DNA from: Escherichia phage YJin-2024a
Length of the DNA stretch: 64,000 nt
Sequence record: PP534475.1
Direction: 5' to 3' (one strand)
The position numbers were made by a program, and so were the translations under genes. Positions 5,490 through 43,209 of the stretch are shown one piece after another (position 1 is the stretch's first letter; every line of letters begins with the position of its first letter). Below the pieces are notes generated by a model. It did not search any database. It saw only the letters and a program-made list of their open reading frames with translations, and was not told where the DNA came from.

Positions 5490-6286
5490 TTTAAGTATTT
5501 TTAAGAACTCTCGTAAAAACTCTTAAAAATACAGACGATACCGGGAGAGTCATAAGTCTCACTCATTAAGTATTTCAAGACAAAATACAGTAACGTCTAT
5601 TATTTTCCAGTTTAAGTCAGGGTGACTTAGTGGTTATGTCCTGCGGTATATTGAGGACTCGGTTAGGCTTGGGGTCATGACTTCCCACCTTTTGCTGCTA
5701 CTCAACAGGAGTTATCGCGAATTACCTGTGCTATTGTGCACCATTAGTGACATCTCTCATGTCAGCATTTCCCACTTTGTGGATAGCTTGAAAAACTACT
5801 CCGATATGGAGAAAGAACTTCACTATCCTAGAATACCTTCTAAAGTTCTTCTTTAGCCTGGACATAGTTAAATCGTAATAAAACTATTCAGCAGACTGGT
5901 TGGTTAGTCTGGAACCAACTACCGCGTGGTTTAGGCAGTGCGCAACTAACCTCGGAAGCTTTTACATTAAAAGCACCAGTTATCCAGTTCTTACCGACCG
6001 TAGGACTCGAACCTACATCTTCCACCAGTTACGGCTTGATAATACCAATTATACTAGGACGGCAGTGTTACTACATAAGTGATTTCCACACCCCACTATT
6101 TATAAATTAGAGAAGAGTTTAGGGGAGAGGTTTCAGACGCCTCATTTTACACGTTCTAGCCACTAACCGGGATTGCCGCCCCCTGTGTACTAGTTTTACA
6201 ACTAACCCACCGACTCTATTCAATGCGCTCCGGTTGGGATTCTGCACTCAGCGTAATCGGCTCGCTGTTCTCTAATTTATGAATAT

Positions 6287-6323: not shown

Positions 6324-6767
6324 TTAATTAAATTCGCCAGCAATCTGAGCAGCAGTACCGCCATCATAACGCCCAGGAAATTCTTCCTTAATCGCTTTCA
6401 TCAGCATACCCTTTGTAATTCCAGGGTTTAGCTTAACTAATTCTGCAAAGTATTTACGAATCTCAGTATCAGATAACTGAGGAGGCAGATACTCCTGCAA
6501 CCACTTATTTAGAATGTATTCATACTGAGCGGACTGCAAGCTATAACTATCAAGATCTTGACCATGAAGTTTAGCTTTCATCTGGTTAATGCTTTTTAGT
6601 TGCGCTTTGAGATAAGACACAAATTGTTCAGAAGTGATGAAATCTTTATCAATACGCTGAAGATCCCCGATTATGGTCTGATAGCTTTTAGCGACTTCTT
6701 TATCAGAACCATTAAACTTAGAATCCTGCAAAGCTCTACGCAAAACATCTAAAATATTCTCTTCCAT
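6324..6767 (-). CDS. YqeY/GatB-C-terminal-domain-like protein
   Basis: C-terminal GMLMKAIKEEFPGRYDGGTAAQIAGEF resembles the GatB/YqeY motif. Confidence 0.5.
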   Translation of the reverse strand: MEENILDVLRRALQDSKFNGSDKEVAKSYQTIIGDLQRIDKDFITSEQFVSYLKAQLKSINQMKAKLHGQDLDSYSLQSAQYEYILNKWLQEYLPPQLSDTEIRKYFAELVKLNPGITKGMLMKAIKEEFPGRYDGGTAAQIAGEFN

Positions 6768-6937
6768 TATTTCATTCCTAACGCTTGGTTAAAAGATTGT
6801 TCTGTCATAACTGCTGAGACTTTGGCGAAATCAAACTTTTTAGGGTTTGTAGTGATTTCAGCAACGTTAGAAGTTTTAACAGTTTTCGTAGTACGAATAC
6901 CGCGAGTGTTAACACCAATAATTACAACTGATTTCAT
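6767..6937 (-). CDS. small hypothetical protein (56 aa)
   Basis: ORF below track threshold; stop overlaps next start (TAATG); promoter at 6969-6997 upstream. Confidence 0.35.
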   Translation of the reverse strand: MKSVVIIGVNTRGIRTTKTVKTSNVAEITTNPKKFDFAKVSAVMTEQSFNQALGMK

Positions 6938-6968: not shown

Positions 6969-6997
6969 ATTATACGGAAATTTAAATATTTAAGCAA
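6969..6997 (-). promoter_or_regulatory. T5-type early promoter TTGCTT-17-TATAAT
   Basis: Consensus hexamers on the minus strand with AT-rich upstream region. Confidence 0.6.
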
Positions 6998-7005
6998 GTA
7001 AATTT

Positions 7006-7473
7006 TTAAGTTTTAGTGACAACAGGTTTATAGAATGTATGTCCCTTAATCTTAGTTGTTTTCTTAAATTTCTTTGTCCAGTAAGGTTTATCTTTACCAC
7101 TATGGAAGTATAGTGCTCCATATGTAGGATCTTGTGGTAAATCAACGTAGTATATCACTCTAGCTAAATTCTTAGCGGTTTGCCAAGCCTCATCAGTTTT
7201 ATCAACTTTTGGTCTCTTAGATACCCAAGAGAACTGGTTAGACTGATATACTACTTTACAGTAGGAATCTGGGAATTTACCGGAGTTTACACGGTTTTTA
7301 GTAACATGTGCAATCGCCGTCATTCCCTTTATGCCCTCACCACGACTCTCGAAATAGATATTTTTAGCAATGCAATCTATTTCTTTTGCATCGTGCGATG
7401 CCTGACTACTAAAGCTGAAGGTAAGGGCAGCTACTAAAAGCAAAGCTGCCTTCATTCTTTTTACTCCTGCCAA
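7006..7473 (-). CDS. secreted SleB-family cell-wall hydrolase
   Basis: Signal peptide MKAALLLVAALTFSFSSQA; NIYFESRGEGIKGMTAIAHVTKNRV matches the SleB hydrolase motif. Confidence 0.6.
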   Translation of the reverse strand: MAGVKRMKAALLLVAALTFSFSSQASHDAKEIDCIAKNIYFESRGEGIKGMTAIAHVTKNRVNSGKFPDSYCKVVYQSNQFSWVSKRPKVDKTDEAWQTAKNLARVIYYVDLPQDPTYGALYFHSGKDKPYWTKKFKKTTKIKGHTFYKPVVTKT

Positions 7474-7778
7474 TCATATTCAACACGATTGGGATTTTCT
7501 TTATACCCTAAGTCAAGCAAATCATTACGCATAGTTTGCTTAGCTACTGGGTTCGAGGTTACTAGTACCACTTTCTTTGGTCTCTGCCCAAATTCTAAGA
7601 GTAAACGAAGAATTTGATAACCTTCCATACCATCTACAGCTAAGTCATTATCCATATAAATGAAGTGGCCTGTGGTATCAGTTTTATTCAGAAACTCTAC
7701 AGCGGCTTCTGGGGTTCGAATGATAATGTCCATTCCGTGAAGATTACGCACATCATCAATCAAAATATGAAAAGTCAT
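7461..7778 (-). CDS. CheY-like receiver (REC)/flavodoxin-fold protein
   Basis: HILIDD, YMDNDLAVDGMEGYQIL and VVLVTSN align to REC Asp-pair, phospho-acceptor and Thr positions; overlaps hydrolase gene by 13 nt. Confidence 0.45.
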   Translation of the reverse strand: MTFHILIDDVRNLHGMDIIIRTPEAAVEFLNKTDTTGHFIYMDNDLAVDGMEGYQILRLLLEFGQRPKKVVLVTSNPVAKQTMRNDLLDLGYKENPNRVEYDWQE

Positions 7779-8220
7779 AATAGCCTCGTTTCATCAATTT
7801 AAAAATATATTATACATATAATTTAGTAGATTAGCAAATACATTTTTAAATTGTGAAACTAGTAAACCGATAAACAGCCTAGAGGCGCCACAGGCCATAT
7901 CTTATGAGCCATGTACCTTTGATCTAGGGTTTGAATCATCAACGAATACTTTGCATCTTTTAGCTTTAGAAGTTTAGAAGTTTGAGTTCTTTAAACTTTT
8001 CAGCTTTCATACTTAAATGTTGATCTTTGAAGTTGTGTCGGTAATATCAACGACGCTTTGTTCTTACGTGTCAGCTTAAAAGGCTGGTGTAATAAACATA
8101 ATCTCCAATAGATTATACTTTATAGTATGGTCAGCGGTCTTATTTAACCTCGTATTTCAACCGCTGCTGCGAGGTAAGATGCTTGGGCTTTCGTCTACCG
8201 ATTTACTAGCTTTTAAATTA

Positions 8221-8859
8221 TTACTCTACTTCAATGAAGGTAGAGGCGTTAGACTCGGACAGAACAAAGTCAACATTTGTTGCAAAGTCCTGGTATTCCT
8301 CGTCATGTTGCTTAATCAGCTTCTCCAGTTCCAGCGGATCAATCAAGAATGGAGTATTCTTGAGTTCCAGCAGGTTGAGCTGCATTTTAACTTCATCTTC
8401 GGAAGTTTTCTTATCGCGGGTAGCCATGCTATCCTGCAAACGCTCATATTTAGCGTCAAACTGTGCTTTCTGCGTATTAAACTTAACCGTAGCGGCATGG
8501 AACTGCTTACGCATGTTAGCCAGCAGCTGAGCTTTAAGCTCCATAGAACGCTTAGCTTCAATTGCTTCCGCAACAGTCATCTTACGAGAACCAATCTCAA
8601 CGATTGTTTCTGCATTGCTCTTAATCAGAGCAGATTTGATACTATCACGCTTAGACATCATATCCAGCAGAGACTGGAAATCAGTCTTAATACGAGTAGA
8701 CAGATCGGCTACTTCGATTGCAGCGCCAACTACAACCTGGTTTTTATCCTTACCTTCACCAACAGCGATCAGAAGCTGCTGTTCAGTAGCTTTACGGATT
8801 TTAGCTTCCAGAGATTTGATAGTTGCCAGAGCACGAGTTTTAGAAATACGAGTAGTCAT
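8221..8859 (-). CDS. hypothetical coiled-coil protein
   Basis: 212-aa ORF, no recognisable motif. Confidence 0.5.
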   Translation of the reverse strand: MTTRISKTRALATIKSLEAKIRKATEQQLLIAVGEGKDKNQVVVGAAIEVADLSTRIKTDFQSLLDMMSKRDSIKSALIKSNAETIVEIGSRKMTVAEAIEAKRSMELKAQLLANMRKQFHAATVKFNTQKAQFDAKYERLQDSMATRDKKTSEDEVKMQLNLLELKNTPFLIDPLELEKLIKQHDEEYQDFATNVDFVLSESNASTFIEVE

Positions 8860-9165: not shown

Positions 9166-9867
9166 TCAAATTTTCATTTTTTCGATCATAGCTGCAACAC
9201 AATAGCTCTCAACTAAGGCATCGAATGCTGGGTCGTGCTTAACCGGATAGATCCCATAACGAATAGTGTCCATCTTCTCCATTTTAGCTATTGCCCAGCT
9301 AATACCTTCGGTCTCTAGAGCTTTATAACTGTATCCAGCTTGCATCCAGAGATTACGAAGAGATCGAACATTGCCCAAATTCCAGAATTTCCACGGAACT
9401 ACCTCTTCATTGGTTCCAGCATGGAACGTATTTGCAGAGTAGATAGTCATATCAAACTCTGGGCCATTGCCATAATACAAAGCATTTTCGCCTAGAGCCA
9501 ACTCCATAATATTTTGAGCCATAGAGAAGGCAGCATAGTTTGAGCCTAATTTATTAGTGCAATGATGTTTACCATTTTGGAAGGCAATCAGTTTTGGATT
9601 ACGTTCCTTCATAGCTTCCATAATGTGGATAGCAGACGGACTATTTTTAGCTTGATCCATCCAGAATGCTAGAGTAGATGCTGTAACTTTGGCACCAGAA
9701 TTAAGTTGATCTTGCACATCCAAAGTAACAAATACTAGATCAGGGTCTTTATCAATTCCATGCATAGCCACAAAAGCGAAAGAAGGCATTGCGATATGAG
9801 TAGTACCACAATCTCCTGGAGTTCCTAGAGATTCAATATCTAGCATACCAAATGGTTTTACTTTCAT
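9166..9867 (-). CDS. DEDDh-family 3'-5' exonuclease
   Basis: Exo I motif GMLDIESLG and C-terminal HDPAFDALVES (H-x4-D). Confidence 0.6.
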   Translation of the reverse strand: MKVKPFGMLDIESLGTPGDCGTTHIAMPSFAFVAMHGIDKDPDLVFVTLDVQDQLNSGAKVTASTLAFWMDQAKNSPSAIHIMEAMKERNPKLIAFQNGKHHCTNKLGSNYAAFSMAQNIMELALGENALYYGNGPEFDMTIYSANTFHAGTNEEVVPWKFWNLGNVRSLRNLWMQAGYSYKALETEGISWAIAKMEKMDTIRYGIYPVKHDPAFDALVESYCVAAMIEKMKI

Positions 9868-22558: not shown

Positions 22559-22748
22559 GGGTTTAAACGCCGCTTTGGAAAACGCATTAATGCAACACTG
22601 GGAAACTGGCTATAGGGATGGTGTTGAATCCTGCGCTACTATGCTAGAAGTTATTGCTAATACCTTAATGGAGAAAGGCAATAAAGAATTAGCTGAGCTA
22701 TTAGACAGTATTGGGCAAAACTTCAGAGAACAGGTGAAAAATGCGTAG
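22527..22748 (+). CDS. hypothetical protein
   Basis: 73-aa ORF overlapping both neighbours. Confidence 0.4.
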   Translation: MAFSKPMLPDKGLNAALENALMQHWETGYRDGVESCATMLEVIANTLMEKGNKELAELLDSIGQNFREQVKNA

Positions 22749-23556
22749 ATTAATTATTATTAGTGGTGCAGGTTTGAGTGTTGAAAGTGGTGTACGAGCT
22801 TTTCGTACTGATACTGCTAGTGGTAAAGCATTGTGGGATGATTATGATCTAGAAGAAGTATGTAATATTCATGCCTTTCGTGGTAATTTTTATCATAAAA
22901 CTCATATGTTTTACAACAAGCGTCGTGAAGAGCTAAAAACTGTTGAACCCAATCTTGCACATTTGCGTATTGGTGAATGGTATAAACAATATCCAGGTCA
23001 AATAGTAAACTTGACTACCAACGTTGATGACCTTATTGAGCGTGCTGGCGTTCCACATAGTGACATTCTGCACATTCACGGATATTTAAAAGAGGTTGTT
23101 GTAGCTGATAGCTACAATAGTAGCAATAAACGGATTATTGATGTAGGATACAATTCTATTGATCCAGATGATTATAAATGGGTTAAACCTAATGTAATCT
23201 TCTTTGGAGAGCATGCTCCTGCATATGCAGAAATGTACAATGTTTTTGATGGTATTACCAGTCAAGATATGATAGTTGTGGTTGGTTGTTCTAACCAAGT
23301 AATTAACTTCTACTGGGAATTATTTCCTGTTCTTAATTTGACTGCTGCGAAACTTATGGTTGTTAACTACTATGATAGTGCCCTAGCGGCGGAACCGGAC
23401 TATCAAGGTATGACTCGTAGTGAGATGTACCAGCTGGAAGAACGCGGTGTCCCTTACTGGAGTAAAGGTGCGGTAGATGCTTTCAGTGATCCTGATTTTA
23501 TTGCTCGTGTGGAAGCTCATTTAGAGGGTAGACCTTATGTGTCAGGAAATAAGTAA
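22741..23556 (+). CDS. Sir2 (sirtuin-fold) protein lacking the zinc-ribbon module
   Basis: SGAGLSVESGVRAFR, TTNVDDLIERAG, HIHGY, NVIFFGE, VVVGCS match sirtuin Rossmann-fold motifs; no CxxC pairs. Confidence 0.65.
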   Translation: MRRLIIISGAGLSVESGVRAFRTDTASGKALWDDYDLEEVCNIHAFRGNFYHKTHMFYNKRREELKTVEPNLAHLRIGEWYKQYPGQIVNLTTNVDDLIERAGVPHSDILHIHGYLKEVVVADSYNSSNKRIIDVGYNSIDPDDYKWVKPNVIFFGEHAPAYAEMYNVFDGITSQDMIVVVGCSNQVINFYWELFPVLNLTAAKLMVVNYYDSALAAEPDYQGMTRSEMYQLEERGVPYWSKGAVDAFSDPDFIARVEAHLEGRPYVSGNK

Positions 23557-24049
23557 TACTCCAATTATTTTTCTGGACATTGATGGGGTGCTCAATTCGA
23601 GCATCTCCCACCATCATGCACCTGATGATGAAAAGATTTTCTTTGGGAGTGACTGGGTTTTCAAACCGCTTCTCAAGGCTTTTCAAGATTTTATTCGTCC
23701 TTCCTCGATAATGATTGTTGGGGTATCCTCATGGTTCTCTGTCAGGAATGAGATGGAGAACGTTCAGATTATGACCGGATTAGGTCTTATCGATCGTTTT
23801 CTTGGTACAACGGATTTTACTGGTGGTGGATTATCTAGGGGTAATTCTGTTCTTCGCTTCGTTGAAAAGCATAAGCTCAAACATTGGTGTGTGCTGGATG
23901 ATGCCGGTGCTATGATGTATCAGTATCCAACGGTTATAGTCAATGGTAGGACTGGGATAAATCTTCAAGATTTAAAAGCTGTTAGCTATATGCTAGAATT
24001 TAGCCCAGATCTTGAAATGTGTAAATCCTTGCAACAATTTAAGGTGTAA
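23537..24049 (+). CDS. HAD-superfamily phosphatase
   Basis: Motif I FLDIDGVL and motif IV VLDDAG; overlaps the Sir2-like gene by 20 nt. Confidence 0.55.
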   Translation: MCQEISNTPIIFLDIDGVLNSSISHHHAPDDEKIFFGSDWVFKPLLKAFQDFIRPSSIMIVGVSSWFSVRNEMENVQIMTGLGLIDRFLGTTDFTGGGLSRGNSVLRFVEKHKLKHWCVLDDAGAMMYQYPTVIVNGRTGINLQDLKAVSYMLEFSPDLEMCKSLQQFKV

Positions 24050-39575: not shown

Positions 39576-40924
39576 AGGTTGTTATATCTAATAAAGCCTA
39601 TTTCAAGCCCGATGATGAACTTTGGGATTATTGTAGTAAGCAAACCACTTATCACATTGAGACAATGACTAGTAAATACCCTATTATGTATAAGAATAGT
39701 GGTGTTGTTGCTAAAGAGATTAAGTGGATTCCTATCACGCGTCTGGATCTACTAGATGCTAAAGGAGTAAAATACGAATTAGTTGATAAACGCACATTAG
39801 CTCCGGTAGATATACCAAAACCTACGTTCAAGCTGCGCGAAGAAGATCAGCTTCCAATATACGAAGAATGCGATGATACCTGTATTATTAATGGTAAGCC
39901 TGGATTTGGCAAAACTATCCTAGCCCTGGCACTTGCGTATAAATTTGGCCAGAAAACTCTGGTAATTTGTACCAACACATCTATTCGTGAAATGTGGGCG
40001 GCAGAAGTTCGTAAATGGTTTGGGTTTGAACCGGGTATCATAGGTTCTGGGAAATACAATATTGATCCACCAATTGTGGTCAGTAATATTCAAACAGTGA
40101 ATAAACATGCGAATAATCTGTCTAAAGTATTCGGTACTGTTATAGTTGATGAAGTTCACCATTGTGTGGCCACAACTTTCACTAACTTCCTAGAAATATC
40201 ATGTGCTCGCTATAAGATTGGACTATCTGGAACATTAAAACGTAAAGATGGTCTACAAGTTATGTTCAAAGATTTCTTTGGATATAAGATCTTTAGCCCA
40301 CCAGTTAATAATACTGTTGCACCTACAATCCATAGGTACTCCGTACCTGTTGAGTTATCAGGGAACCAAAACGTACCCTGGGCATTACGTGCTAACGATG
40401 TGTATAATCATCCTGAATATCGAGAGACTATTATAAACCTGGCACATTTATACGTGAATATGGGGCATAAAGTACTCATTGTAAGTGATAGAACAGAGTT
40501 AATCCAAACAGTGCTAGAAGCTCTTGCACAGCGTGGTGTTACAACATATGAAATTATAGGGGCAACCCACTTAGATGACCGATTAAAAATTCAGGAAGAT
40601 ATAGCAAAAGGTGGACCTTGTGTACTTGCAGCAGCTCAAAGTATCTTCTCTGAAGGTATTTCTCTTAACGAGTTGTCTTGTTTAATAATGGGGAGTCTCA
40701 TTAATAATGAATCTCTCATCGAACAGCTTGCAGGACGTGTTCAACGTATTGTCAATGGTAAACTCGACCCTATTGTTGTAGATCTAATTATGAAAGGTGG
40801 CACTGGACTAAGACAGGCTTCTGGACGTATGGCAGTATATCGTAACAACGGGTGGAAAACTATTACTATGACTCCGGAGAAAGCAGTTCAATTAGCTAAA
40901 ATTGCATTTGGCAACAGCTCATAA
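39572..40924 (+). CDS. SF2 DNA helicase (T5 D10-like)
   Basis: Walker A GKPGFGKT, DEAH-type VIVDEVHH. Confidence 0.8.
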   Translation: MKVVISNKAYFKPDDELWDYCSKQTTYHIETMTSKYPIMYKNSGVVAKEIKWIPITRLDLLDAKGVKYELVDKRTLAPVDIPKPTFKLREEDQLPIYEECDDTCIINGKPGFGKTILALALAYKFGQKTLVICTNTSIREMWAAEVRKWFGFEPGIIGSGKYNIDPPIVVSNIQTVNKHANNLSKVFGTVIVDEVHHCVATTFTNFLEISCARYKIGLSGTLKRKDGLQVMFKDFFGYKIFSPPVNNTVAPTIHRYSVPVELSGNQNVPWALRANDVYNHPEYRETIINLAHLYVNMGHKVLIVSDRTELIQTVLEALAQRGVTTYEIIGATHLDDRLKIQEDIAKGGPCVLAAAQSIFSEGISLNELSCLIMGSLINNESLIEQLAGRVQRIVNGKLDPIVVDLIMKGGTGLRQASGRMAVYRNNGWKTITMTPEKAVQLAKIAFGNSS

Positions 40925-41144
40925 ATGATGTATAATATATACATAAATTTGAGAGAGAAAGTTTCGGATTGATAAGAAAGTCCGAAGCAGAAAAATAAAA
41001 ATTTTAGTTGCTAAATTCTCTCGAAATCTAGTATAATATATACATAAATTCGAGGAGAAAACAAAAATTAAATTCTTCGATTATGAAAAGCTATACTTAC
41101 TAGCTAGAGGAAATTCCGACCTAATTATTAAGCTATTCAAAAGA

Positions 41145-41429
41145 ATGCTTACAGAGCCTGATGCTCACCAATTATTGGTCGGTTCCTCATTCATTTTGAA
41201 TGAATCAACAATAGTTGATAATCCAAATAAATTGTCTAATAGACAACTGGCAGAATATCTAGGAATTTTAAGTCTACGAAATTATGCCGAATACAAGTTT
41301 ACAAACGATCCTAGTTTGGACATACAATATGTTCCAGTATGGATACCACGTTTAGTAATCGACACTAACCCACTAATCGCAATTAACAAATCGAAATTAA
41401 TCTTTAAAGAGGAAATAAAATATGGCTAA
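41145..41429 (+). CDS. hypothetical protein
   Basis: 94-aa ORF with weak RBS. Confidence 0.3.
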   Translation: MLTEPDAHQLLVGSSFILNESTIVDNPNKLSNRQLAEYLGILSLRNYAEYKFTNDPSLDIQYVPVWIPRLVIDTNPLIAINKSKLIFKEEIKYG

Positions 41430-42195
41430 GTCTTGGGGCGAAACTACTGGCGGTTCTAACGATAAAATCGAATTCCTGAAGTTCAACAACGGTATCACTC
41501 GTGTTCGTATCGTTTCTGGTGTTCTTCCACGTTATGTCTATTGGCTGACTAATAAAGAGGGTAACGCAGCTCCTTTCGAATGTCTCCGTTTTAACCGTGA
41601 CAAAGAGAGCTTTGTTCGTGGTAAAGCTGATCCAGTTCATGAGATGGGCTTCTTCGAGAAAGAGCTGGATAAAGAGGGTAATCGTGTTCCGCTGAAACCG
41701 AAGAAAAACTATATCGCTTTTGTTATCGACCGTTCTGATAACAAACTGAAAGTAATGGAAGTCAAGGCTACTATTCTGAAAGGCATCCAGTCTATCATGA
41801 AGCAGTTGAATCTGGCAACTCCGTTTGATATTGATATTTCTATCGAGAAAAAAGGTAAAGGTTTCGATACTGAGTATGATGTACAGCAGATTGCTGCTAT
41901 GCAGTTCCAGATTAAGCTGCAAGATCCTAACAGTGCGGAATCTAAGCAATATGCTGCGGATGTAGATCTGATCGGTGAAGCTATGTGTGACGAAGATGGC
42001 GACATCATTAAGTTCGAAAAAGTTCCTTCTCTGGAACAAACCTATCCGGTTCCTACCTATGAAGAGCAGAAAGAAGCAATTCAAGCCTTCATGGAGGGTC
42101 GTGAGAATAAAGATGATGATGCCAAATCTGGTAATAGCAATGTAGGCTCCCAGAAAGGTATTGACACAGAAGCTGCAAGCGATCTGGACGACTAA
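41422..42195 (+). CDS. gp32-like ssDNA-binding protein with acidic C-terminal tail
   Basis: RVRIVSGVLPR...NAAPFECLRF resembles T4 gp32 AVIRFLPSK...QAPFAIL; C-terminus ...EAASDLDD; high-expression codon usage. Confidence 0.5.
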   Translation: MAKSWGETTGGSNDKIEFLKFNNGITRVRIVSGVLPRYVYWLTNKEGNAAPFECLRFNRDKESFVRGKADPVHEMGFFEKELDKEGNRVPLKPKKNYIAFVIDRSDNKLKVMEVKATILKGIQSIMKQLNLATPFDIDISIEKKGKGFDTEYDVQQIAAMQFQIKLQDPNSAESKQYAADVDLIGEAMCDEDGDIIKFEKVPSLEQTYPVPTYEEQKEAIQAFMEGRENKDDDAKSGNSNVGSQKGIDTEAASDLDD

Positions 42196-42231: not shown

Positions 42232-43209
42232 ATGAGAATATTATTTAGTGCTGATCATCATATCAAACTAGGACAAGATAAAGTTCCAAAGGAATGGCAG
42301 AAGCGTCGCTTCCTGATGCTAGGAGAACGGTTAAATGATATATTCCATAATCATAACTGTGATCTCCATATTGCTGGTGGTGATATACTTGATGTTGCCG
42401 ACCCGTCGTCAGAAGAAATAGAACTGCTTGAACAGTTCATGTCAAGACTTGACCATCCAGGCAAAATCTTTACTGGAAATCATGAAATGTTAACTAAAAC
42501 CATTTCATGCCTATATCATTATGCAGGAGTTATTAATAAAGTAACGAGTGGTAAGTGGGAAGTAATTACCAAACCATATCGTTCCCCTGAATTTGATATT
42601 GTTCCGTATGATGAGATCCATAAATCCAAATGGAAACCGTCTGAATCAAAACTATGTTTCACGCATGTTCGTGGTGAAATCCCTCCACATGTAAAACCAG
42701 AAATTGATCTAACTAAGTATAACTGTTATGATACTGTAATTGCTGGCGATTTACATTCTTATACTAATAGCCAGACTATCGGATCTACTAGACTTCTCTA
42801 CCCAGGGTCTCCATTAACTACATCGTTCCATAGAGAACGCACAAAAGGTACAAATGGTTGCTTTATCATTGATACCGACACATTAAAAGTAGAATGGATT
42901 GAACTAGGGGATTTACCACAACTGATTCGTAAAACAATCGGAGCCGGTGAAGAGATGGAACCTAGTGATTATGATCGTGTAGTCTATGAAGTTACTGGTG
43001 ACGTTGTTCAACTAAAGTCTATCAAAGACTCTGATTTATTAGATAAGAAGATTAACCATCGAGTTACTAAAGACGCTAAGTTAAATCTTGTTGATCTTGA
43101 TATGTTAGGTGAACTTGAACTTTACTTCCGTGAAGTCGAGAAGCTATCTCAAGGCGACATTGATAGAATCTTGGCTAGAGCTGCGAAATATGTCAAAGAT
43201 TACAATTAA
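42232..43209 (+). CDS. SbcD/Mre11-like nuclease
   Basis: Calcineurin-like phosphoesterase motifs DHH, GGDILD, GNHE. Confidence 0.8.
   Translation: MRILFSADHHIKLGQDKVPKEWQKRRFLMLGERLNDIFHNHNCDLHIAGGDILDVADPSSEEIELLEQFMSRLDHPGKIFTGNHEMLTKTISCLYHYAGVINKVTSGKWEVITKPYRSPEFDIVPYDEIHKSKWKPSESKLCFTHVRGEIPPHVKPEIDLTKYNCYDTVIAGDLHSYTNSQTIGSTRLLYPGSPLTTSFHRERTKGTNGCFIIDTDTLKVEWIELGDLPQLIRKTIGAGEEMEPSDYDRVVYEVTGDVVQLKSIKDSDLLDKKINHRVTKDAKLNLVDLDMLGELELYFREVEKLSQGDIDRILARAAKYVKDYN

Follow-up and report, generated by a model that had tools for sequence, protein, structure and literature searches.

Phage T5 (NC_005859) carries, at 42290-43062, two adjacent genes, T5.084 and T5.083, that are annotated merely as 'hypothetical protein' and 'endolysin', respectively. 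The experimentally characterised endolysin of T5 is EndoT5, an M15 L-alanoyl-D-glutamate peptidase, and the 'SleB' gene is already in print (2012, 2024) as a second 'endolysin' located far from the holin. A search of the literature on T5.083 and T5.084 found nothing relevant.

SleB of Bacillus is a germination-specific lytic transglycosylase whose catalytic domain is represented in the PDB by 4F55 and 4FET (B. cereus and B. anthracis). SleB proper requires muramic δ-lactam, which is missing from the peptidoglycan of E. coli and Salmonella. Secreted and SAR endolysins are also well known, with Lys44 of Oenococcus phage fOg44, Lyz of P1 and R of phage 21 as examples. A type VI secretion effector with the SleB fold, T6EC3, exhibits Glu-dependent toxicity in the E. 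coli periplasm (PMC11148199), indicating that this fold can act on Gram-negative walls.

The cREC family (PF20274) was named in 2021. Iyer, Burroughs, Aravind and co-workers, who defined it, find its members with RNA-repair and NAD/ADP-ribose-processing genes and in no case in association with histidine kinases; its predicted task is to resolve 2′,3′-cyclic phosphate RNA ends or ADP-ribose (ADPR) 1″-2″ cyclic phosphate (PMC7824862, PMC9503650). The family is explicitly stated to be experimentally uncharacterised (PMC9503650), and a literature search found no experimental work on cREC.

The window analyzed here, a stretch of 64,000 nucleotides from Escherichia phage YJin-2024a (PP534475.1), was identified by sequence comparison as T5-like phage DNA. 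It contains the tRNA-rich early region, genes of nucleotide metabolism, replication and recombination, and the first tail genes. The 3.6 kb around the gene pair under study is 100% identical to Salmonella phages vB_Sen-E22 and SaI_NFG_5581, and the region matches 442 phage records, nearly all of them T5-like Demerecviridae. Two minus-strand open reading frames were found there, at 7461..7778 (105 aa) and at 7006..7473 (155 aa when counted from a TTG). Because their Pfam scores exceed the gathering cut-offs and the region is shared by over 440 phage records, these reading frames can be taken as genuine genes rather than chance ORFs. The first is a cREC gene homologous to T5.084 (7461..7778, minus strand, 105 aa) and the second a SleB-like Hydrolase_2 gene homologous to T5.083 (7006..7455, minus strand, 149 aa from an ATG at 7455), both sets of coordinates including the stop codon. 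The T5 proteins are 96% and 97% identical to their counterparts in the window, and the T5 genes match the window pair in order, 5-nt spacing and flanking promoters, with no difference of substance between the two loci. Both genes are already known and annotated in T5 and hundreds of relatives. The hydrolase gene has the cREC gene, a DUF7616 gene and a gene for a YqeY-like protein as its neighbors, and genes for thymidylate synthase, DHFR and RNR lie downstream of the cREC locus. Searches with PADLOC and NCBIfam yielded no match for the cREC, DUF7616 or YqeY-like proteins.

The initial annotation described the two genes as overlapping by 13 nt. This overlap depends on the TTG at 7473, which is the mechanical longest-ORF start of the hydrolase, lacks a Shine-Dalgarno sequence and is not conserved. 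The ATG at 7455, by comparison, has an AGGAG 8 nt upstream (7464..7468, minus strand), situated within the last codons of the cREC gene (CAG GAG TAA). This ATG was also the choice of the GenBank depositors for T5, HMD-7 and vB_Sen-E22, giving a 149-aa product, and homologues start at the same position. The ATG and a GGAG-type Shine-Dalgarno sequence were kept in every genomic context examined, whichever gene lies upstream. The overlap was therefore rejected: the cREC stop codon (TAA, 7463..7461) is followed by a 5-nt spacer and then by the hydrolase ATG, and the genes are tightly packed but non-overlapping.

Upstream of the cREC gene, a σ70 promoter-like site (TTGCTA-17-TATAAT, 7809..7837, minus strand, 10/12 match) corresponds in position to the promoter annotated upstream of T5.084 (T5 regulatory feature 43067-43141). 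A T5-type promoter (TTGCTT-17-TATAAT, 6969..6997, minus strand), recognized by direct reading of the sequence and from the T5 annotation, begins 9 nt past the hydrolase stop codon and is the equivalent of T5 'P-D/E 33'. A scan around the cREC-hydrolase unit detected no intrinsic terminator. The two predicted promoters thus enclose a two-gene unit made up of cREC and the hydrolase. We consider it probable that this locus comprises two functionally independent T5-like early genes in one short promoter-flanked transcription unit, with the roles for the two proteins that are proposed below.

The 105-aa protein matched Pfam PF20274 (cREC_REC) over profile positions 2-86 of 88, scoring 55.4 bits (gathering cut-off 27; E 1e-14), and PF20274 was carried by all of the homologues found. 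It falls in PHROG 1479, of unknown function. At E≤1, the sole other Pfam match was PalB_C (E 0.24), which is unrelated to nucleotide metabolism, and even at this threshold there was no match to the two-component receiver family PF00072. A search of PDB sequences with the cREC profile gave marginal resolvase matches only (E≥0.08), which are not meaningful. The AlphaFold (AF2) model of the protein has a pLDDT of 92.7 and contains a 10-residue loop in place of helix 1 and a β-hairpin in place of helix 5. The protein is a stand-alone receiver-fold domain and, having no signal peptide, is cytoplasmic.

Residue conservation was assessed in 212 diverse homologues, each sharing below 60% identity with the query. 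Residues D8 (7757..7755), D9 (7754..7752), R11, R21, D43 (7652..7650), D45 (7646..7644), G53, P67, T/S74 (T74, 7559..7557) and N76 (7553..7551), all encoded on the minus strand within 7461..7778, were essentially invariant, and each of D8, D9, D43 and D45 was invariant in at least 210 of the 212 relatives. The phospho-acceptor position, D43, the conservation of which had been singled out for checking in the initial annotation, is therefore conserved. The query differs from its relatives in having Ala at the Gly position of the D-x-D-L-G motif, where 196/212 have Gly.

Like other members of the cREC family, the window protein is a stand-alone phage protein of about 100 aa with conserved aspartates. 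Further, the window genome also has a sirtuin and 'Swiss Army Knife' HAD pair, as in the T5-like phage SP15 discussed in the papers on the family: a SIR2 gene adjoins the gene of an RNA-repair phosphatase with the 'Swiss Army Knife' HAD domain (HAD_SAK_2). This pair is encoded on the opposite strand about 15 kb from cREC, and the genome yielded no identifiable RNA ligase, so that a role in RNA repair would be contextual. Genes for an Rv2179c-like exoribonuclease and the YqeY-like protein were found within 2 kb of cREC, and a tRNA cluster within a few kb. In contrast to the published contexts, cREC in the window is neither fused nor adjacent to Nudix, RNA ligase, 2H or sirtuin genes, and a cell-wall hydrolase as the immediate neighbor of cREC is a context undescribed in PMC7824862 and PMC9503650. 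Judged from its genome context and from what is predicted for the family, cREC would most likely be a small phosphoesterase that acts on cyclic phosphates in RNA-end repair or counter-defence. T5 would offer a tractable system for determining the first biochemical activity of a cREC protein.

The product of the second gene matched Pfam PF07486 (Hydrolase_2) over the full profile (1-100), with a score of 88.9 bits against a gathering cut-off of 27 (E 3.8e-25), and was assigned to PHROG 938, 'endolysin'. In a phmmer search of PDB sequences it matched SleB catalytic domains only (4F55 and 4FET), with NIYFESRGE aligned against AVYGESRGE. Consistent with this result, the sole significant PDB matches obtained by Foldseek with the AlphaFold (AF2) model of the hydrolase (pLDDT 90.5) were these same structures, with target-normalised TM scores of 0.71-0.79. 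The catalytic residue, Glu36 (7350..7348, minus strand), aligned with the first Glu of YGESRGE, which by chain-offset arithmetic would be E157/E151 of SleB, the residues reported by Li 2012 and Jing 2012. Residues C28 (7374..7372, minus strand), E36, R38, E40 and C66 (7260..7258, minus strand) were invariant in 26 homologues. On these grounds the protein is assigned to the SleB catalytic-domain family, with which it shares the fold, 28-31% identity and the catalytic Glu motif Y-x-E-S-R-G-E.

Identification as SleB proper, the spore cortex-lytic enzyme, was rejected. The hydrolase scored 50.4 bits on the SleB equivalog TIGR02869, for which the cut-off is 236.5, with only profile positions 79-201 matched, and Pfam detected no second domain, the N-terminal peptidoglycan-binding domain of SleB being absent. 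The phage hydrolase also differs from Bacillus SleB in its conserved Cys pair and in having a host without a cortex or muramic δ-lactam. In view of the δ-lactam requirement of SleB, the bond specificity of the phage enzyme and its activity on normal peptidoglycan remain putative. Three erroneous labels that recur in annotations are corrected by the present analysis: 'spore cortex-lytic enzyme precursor', 'endolysin' and 'intein-containing protein'.

The N-terminus of the hydrolase reads MK-AALLLVAALTFSF-SSQA followed by S20. A Sec signal peptide was predicted at residues 1-19, MKAALLLVAALTFSFSSQA (7399..7455, minus strand), with the cut before S20; this call is heuristic, being based on a Kyte-Doolittle profile and a small-x-Ala motif. 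Its features are a positive n-region (K2), a 13-residue h-region, within the 7-15 residues expected of such peptides, and the site S17-Q-A19 before S20. An equivalent n/h/c segment was present in 26/26 aligned homologues, most of which also had a small-x-Ala site after it. SAR endolysins have a weakly hydrophobic, Gly/Ala-rich transmembrane domain of about 18-20 residues at the N-terminus that is not cleaved off. The stretch from A3 to S20 comprises 18 uncharged residues and is Ala/Ser-rich, and the N-terminus may therefore be an uncleaved, SAR-like signal anchor. Its hydrophobic core, however, spans just 13 residues and is followed by the small-x-Ala site, which gives it the look of a cleavable peptide more than that of a signal anchor. 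We infer Sec export with cleavage after Ala19, and the invariant Cys pair suggests a C28-C66 disulfide. Together, the predicted signal peptide and the invariant cysteines argue for a periplasmic enzyme. Thus, the initial description of a SleB-family hydrolase with a signal peptide was borne out by the Pfam, PDB and Foldseek matches, by the presence of the catalytic Glu and by the predicted N-terminal signal in all of the homologues.

cREC keeps the acidic pocket of receivers (D8/D9, D43 and T74), to which the family-specific R11, R21, D45 and N76 have been added. Under the explanation that we favor, it would act in the cytoplasm as a phosphoesterase, with 2′,3′-cyclic RNA ends or ADP-ribose 1″-2″ cyclic phosphate as candidate substrates. 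It would belong to a phage set for tRNA/RNA-end repair or counter-defence, and not to two-component signaling. The 149-aa hydrolase would be exported by Sec, probably cut after Ala19, and the mature protein would fold in the periplasm with a possible Cys28/Cys66 disulfide. There it would act via Glu36 as a single-domain lytic transglycosylase of the SleB type on the host sacculus, accessory to the main lysis system. Main lysis would be carried out by a cassette of holin, EndoT5-type M15 peptidase and spanin encoded elsewhere in the genome. The close spacing of the two genes would be ordinary phage operon compaction, with no sign of a shared function.

The receiver fold of the small protein would also be compatible with a phospho-accepting, single-domain response regulator of the CheY/Spo0F kind that taps or drains host phosphorelays. 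Two-component receivers have their overall α/β fold in common with cREC, and in both the C-terminal ends of strands 1, 3 and 4 carry the acidic pocket and the Thr; the acidic pair, the acceptor-position Asp and the β4 Thr/Ser are all invariant among the cREC relatives. However, cREC lacks several features of CheY and Spo0F, namely a conserved β5 Lys (the corresponding residue 93 varies or falls in a gap among the 212 relatives), helices 1 and 5, which are missing from the model, a kinase partner, an output domain and a PF00072 match. Conversely, it has additional invariant Arg, Asp and Asn residues, and the family-specific character of R11, R21, N76 and the Asp at acceptor+2 suggests catalysis over a stable phospho-switch. 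Histidine kinases are reported never to accompany the family (PMC7824862, PMC9503650), and none is annotated in the related complete genomes. A response regulator is thus quite improbable, and of the initial receiver-like designation the fold was upheld, by PF20274, the AF2 model and Foldseek, whereas the role in signaling was not. The nucleoside 2-deoxyribosyltransferase that had been offered as the alternative, or another flavodoxin-like family of nucleotide metabolism, has only its position near the thymidylate synthase, DHFR and RNR genes in its favor. No such enzyme was among the Pfam or Foldseek matches; of the Pfam families, cREC_REC alone passed the gathering threshold, and Foldseek was in agreement with Pfam on the cREC/receiver fold. 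This candidate was rejected at both family and fold level, and the probability left to it is negligible. Neither of the findings that would have spoken against the initial description was made, as the small protein matches no nucleotide-metabolism family and the hydrolase keeps the SleB catalytic Glu. For the hydrolase, the label 'endolysin' could be literally right, and the SleB-like protein could be the main, Sec- or SAR-type endolysin of the phage. This reading draws on the PHROG 938 match, on the many records that use the name, on the familiarity of secreted and SAR endolysins and on the finding that, among lysins of phages with Gram-negative hosts, about 28% are predicted to have a signal peptide (PMC8223927). 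By the same figure, the initial view of Sec export as atypical for an endolysin was overstated. The hydrolase resembles these endolysins, and T6EC3, as a muralytic enzyme sent to the periplasm by an N-terminal signal. Unlike them, it has no adjacent holin or pinholin, and the phage already has a cytoplasmic endolysin and a holin: in the close relative HMD-7, a complete set of holin, M15 endolysin, Rz-like spanin and o-spanin is encoded elsewhere in the genome, outside the window. Since this set lies elsewhere and EndoT5 is the characterised T5 endolysin, and given that publications place the second 'endolysin' far from the holin, a main endolysin is distinctly unlikely and the hydrolase is better regarded as an accessory muralytic enzyme. 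The gene does lie in the early region, as first noted, but this position is not distinctive because the T5 holin and endolysin are also early (PMC3326045). An active transglycosylase exported early should harm the infected cell, which is a puzzle for the accessory-hydrolase reading. T5 would also be a tractable system in which to ask what use a phage that has its full lysis cassette makes of a SleB-type transglycosylase expressed from an early promoter and exported. A rather unlikely reading of the two genes is that they serve early host takeover and that neither protein acts as labelled. In that case cREC might destroy cyclic-phosphate immune signals, or might mend tRNAs after cleavage by anticodon nucleases of the host, and the SleB-type enzyme might remodel the sacculus for purposes other than lysis, such as superinfection exclusion, periplasmic assembly space or anhydromuropeptide signaling.

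The initial annotation had also called the pair translationally coupled, and one alternative reading is that the two genes form a functional module. Here the receiver-like protein would be a sensor, of phosphorylation or of a nucleotide, that governs the output or activity of the hydrolase, with translational coupling setting the stoichiometry. The 5-nt gap, the location of the hydrolase Shine-Dalgarno sequence inside the 3′ end of cREC and the bracketing of the pair by two promoters are all in keeping with this proposal, as is adjacency at fixed spacing, which holds for about 30 loci of Markadamsvirinae and for a single divergent contig, Demerecviridae-like and with 49%/43% identity. However, insertions were tolerated between the two: an HNH homing endonuclease gene separates cREC from the hydrolase in phage falkor, and another locus (L031) has an insertion of about 470 nt at this junction. 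In Pectobacterium phage My1 they are five genes, about 2.9 kb, apart. In Klebsiella Sugarlandvirus there is no cREC, and the hydrolase follows the upstream gene directly; no Hydrolase_2 was found within the 3-6 kb flanks examined at eight non-T5-like cREC loci, including that of Vibrio phage nt-1. The search for related loci in viral contigs gave nearly only T5-like loci, and the distant contexts were drawn from encoding contigs and GenBank records. Phage records with a member of the hydrolase family numbered 1,376, and those with cREC 493. From phage to phage, the paired genes differed discordantly in sequence identity (50%/91%, 56%/83% and 94%/68%), indicating recombination between them. Adjacency is lineage-specific, confined to Markadamsvirinae and close relatives. 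Moreover, cREC has no output domain and no signal peptide while the hydrolase is predicted to be exported, which would place the mature proteins in different compartments, and the hydrolase retains its own Shine-Dalgarno sequence and ATG in every context. Taken together, the insertions, the My1 split, the Sugarlandvirus and non-T5-like loci, the discordant identities and the different compartments make a dedicated functional partnership of cREC and the hydrolase unlikely; the specific proposal of a sensor that controls the hydrolase is already largely refuted by the distribution data and is very improbable. Operon compaction is the simplest reading of the close spacing, the 5-nt gap reflecting a compact genome rather than products that work as a pair. 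Close spacing may nonetheless equalise expression of the two genes, and the persistence of adjacency down to 49%/43% identity is compatible with some selective advantage of co-expression.

Comparison with related T5-like phages revealed discordant identities for the genes encoding cREC, a cytoplasmic receiver-fold protein, and the adjacent SleB-like hydrolase. Identities of cREC and the hydrolase to their counterparts in the window were 56% and 83% at locus L003, 50% and 91% at L004, and 94% and 68% at L031. To judge from these sequence comparisons, this discordance points to a hotspot of recombination located at the cREC/hydrolase junction or close to it. The position of the proposed hotspot coincides with homing endonuclease insertions.

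The 442 nt upstream of cREC (7779..8220) contain no convincing ORF. At the matching position, relatives encode an HNH_3 homing endonuclease, which is free-standing in phage falkor and fused in frame to the N-terminus of cREC in phage HildyBeyeler (P0121, 273 aa). In the deposited annotation of P0121, the endonuclease is treated as an intein whose N-extein comprises 2 residues; Pfam matched the HNH_3 and cREC portions and returned no intein domain match.

Further upstream lies a gene for a 212-aa "tail fiber protein" (8221..8859, minus strand). Because this gene is situated in the early region and its product has no match in Pfam, the label looks like a propagated mis-annotation. The 233-aa product of 9166..9867 (minus strand) matches the Rv2179c-like 3'-5' exoribonuclease domain, but is labelled "metallopeptidase", "exonuclease" or "recombination related exonuclease" in sequence records.

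Downstream of the hydrolase, a T5-type promoter (TTGCTT-17-TATAAT; 6969..6997, minus strand), strong by sequence and with an A/T-rich upstream tract, begins 9 nt past the hydrolase stop and is the counterpart of T5 promoter "P-D/E 33". The promoter scan made no call at this site, since the -35 hexamer matches TTGACA at just 3 of 6 bases. Also downstream, on the minus strand, are genes for a 56-aa DUF7616 protein (6767..6937), whose stop codon abuts the next start codon, and a weakly YqeY-like 147-aa protein (6324..6767; 25.4 bits, slightly below the YqeY model cut-off of 27). The latter is labelled "tRNA amidotransferase" or "recombination related exonuclease" in records. A gene-free stretch corresponding to T5 "rnaX" (T5 40848-41566), which T5 annotation lists as a stable RNA with no assigned function, contains a match to the Rfam tRNA model (5992..6063, minus strand; 34.2 bits against a gathering score of 29), despite which ARAGORN called no tRNA there.

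On the plus strand, a SIR2 gene and an ORF for HAD_SAK_2, the "Swiss Army Knife" RNA-repair HAD domain, overlap by 20 nt (22741..24049). The same pair in the T5-like phage SP15 has been described as a predicted NAD-dependent RNA-end repair pair. Both counterparts in phage HMD-7 are annotated "Sir2 NAD-dependent deacetylase".
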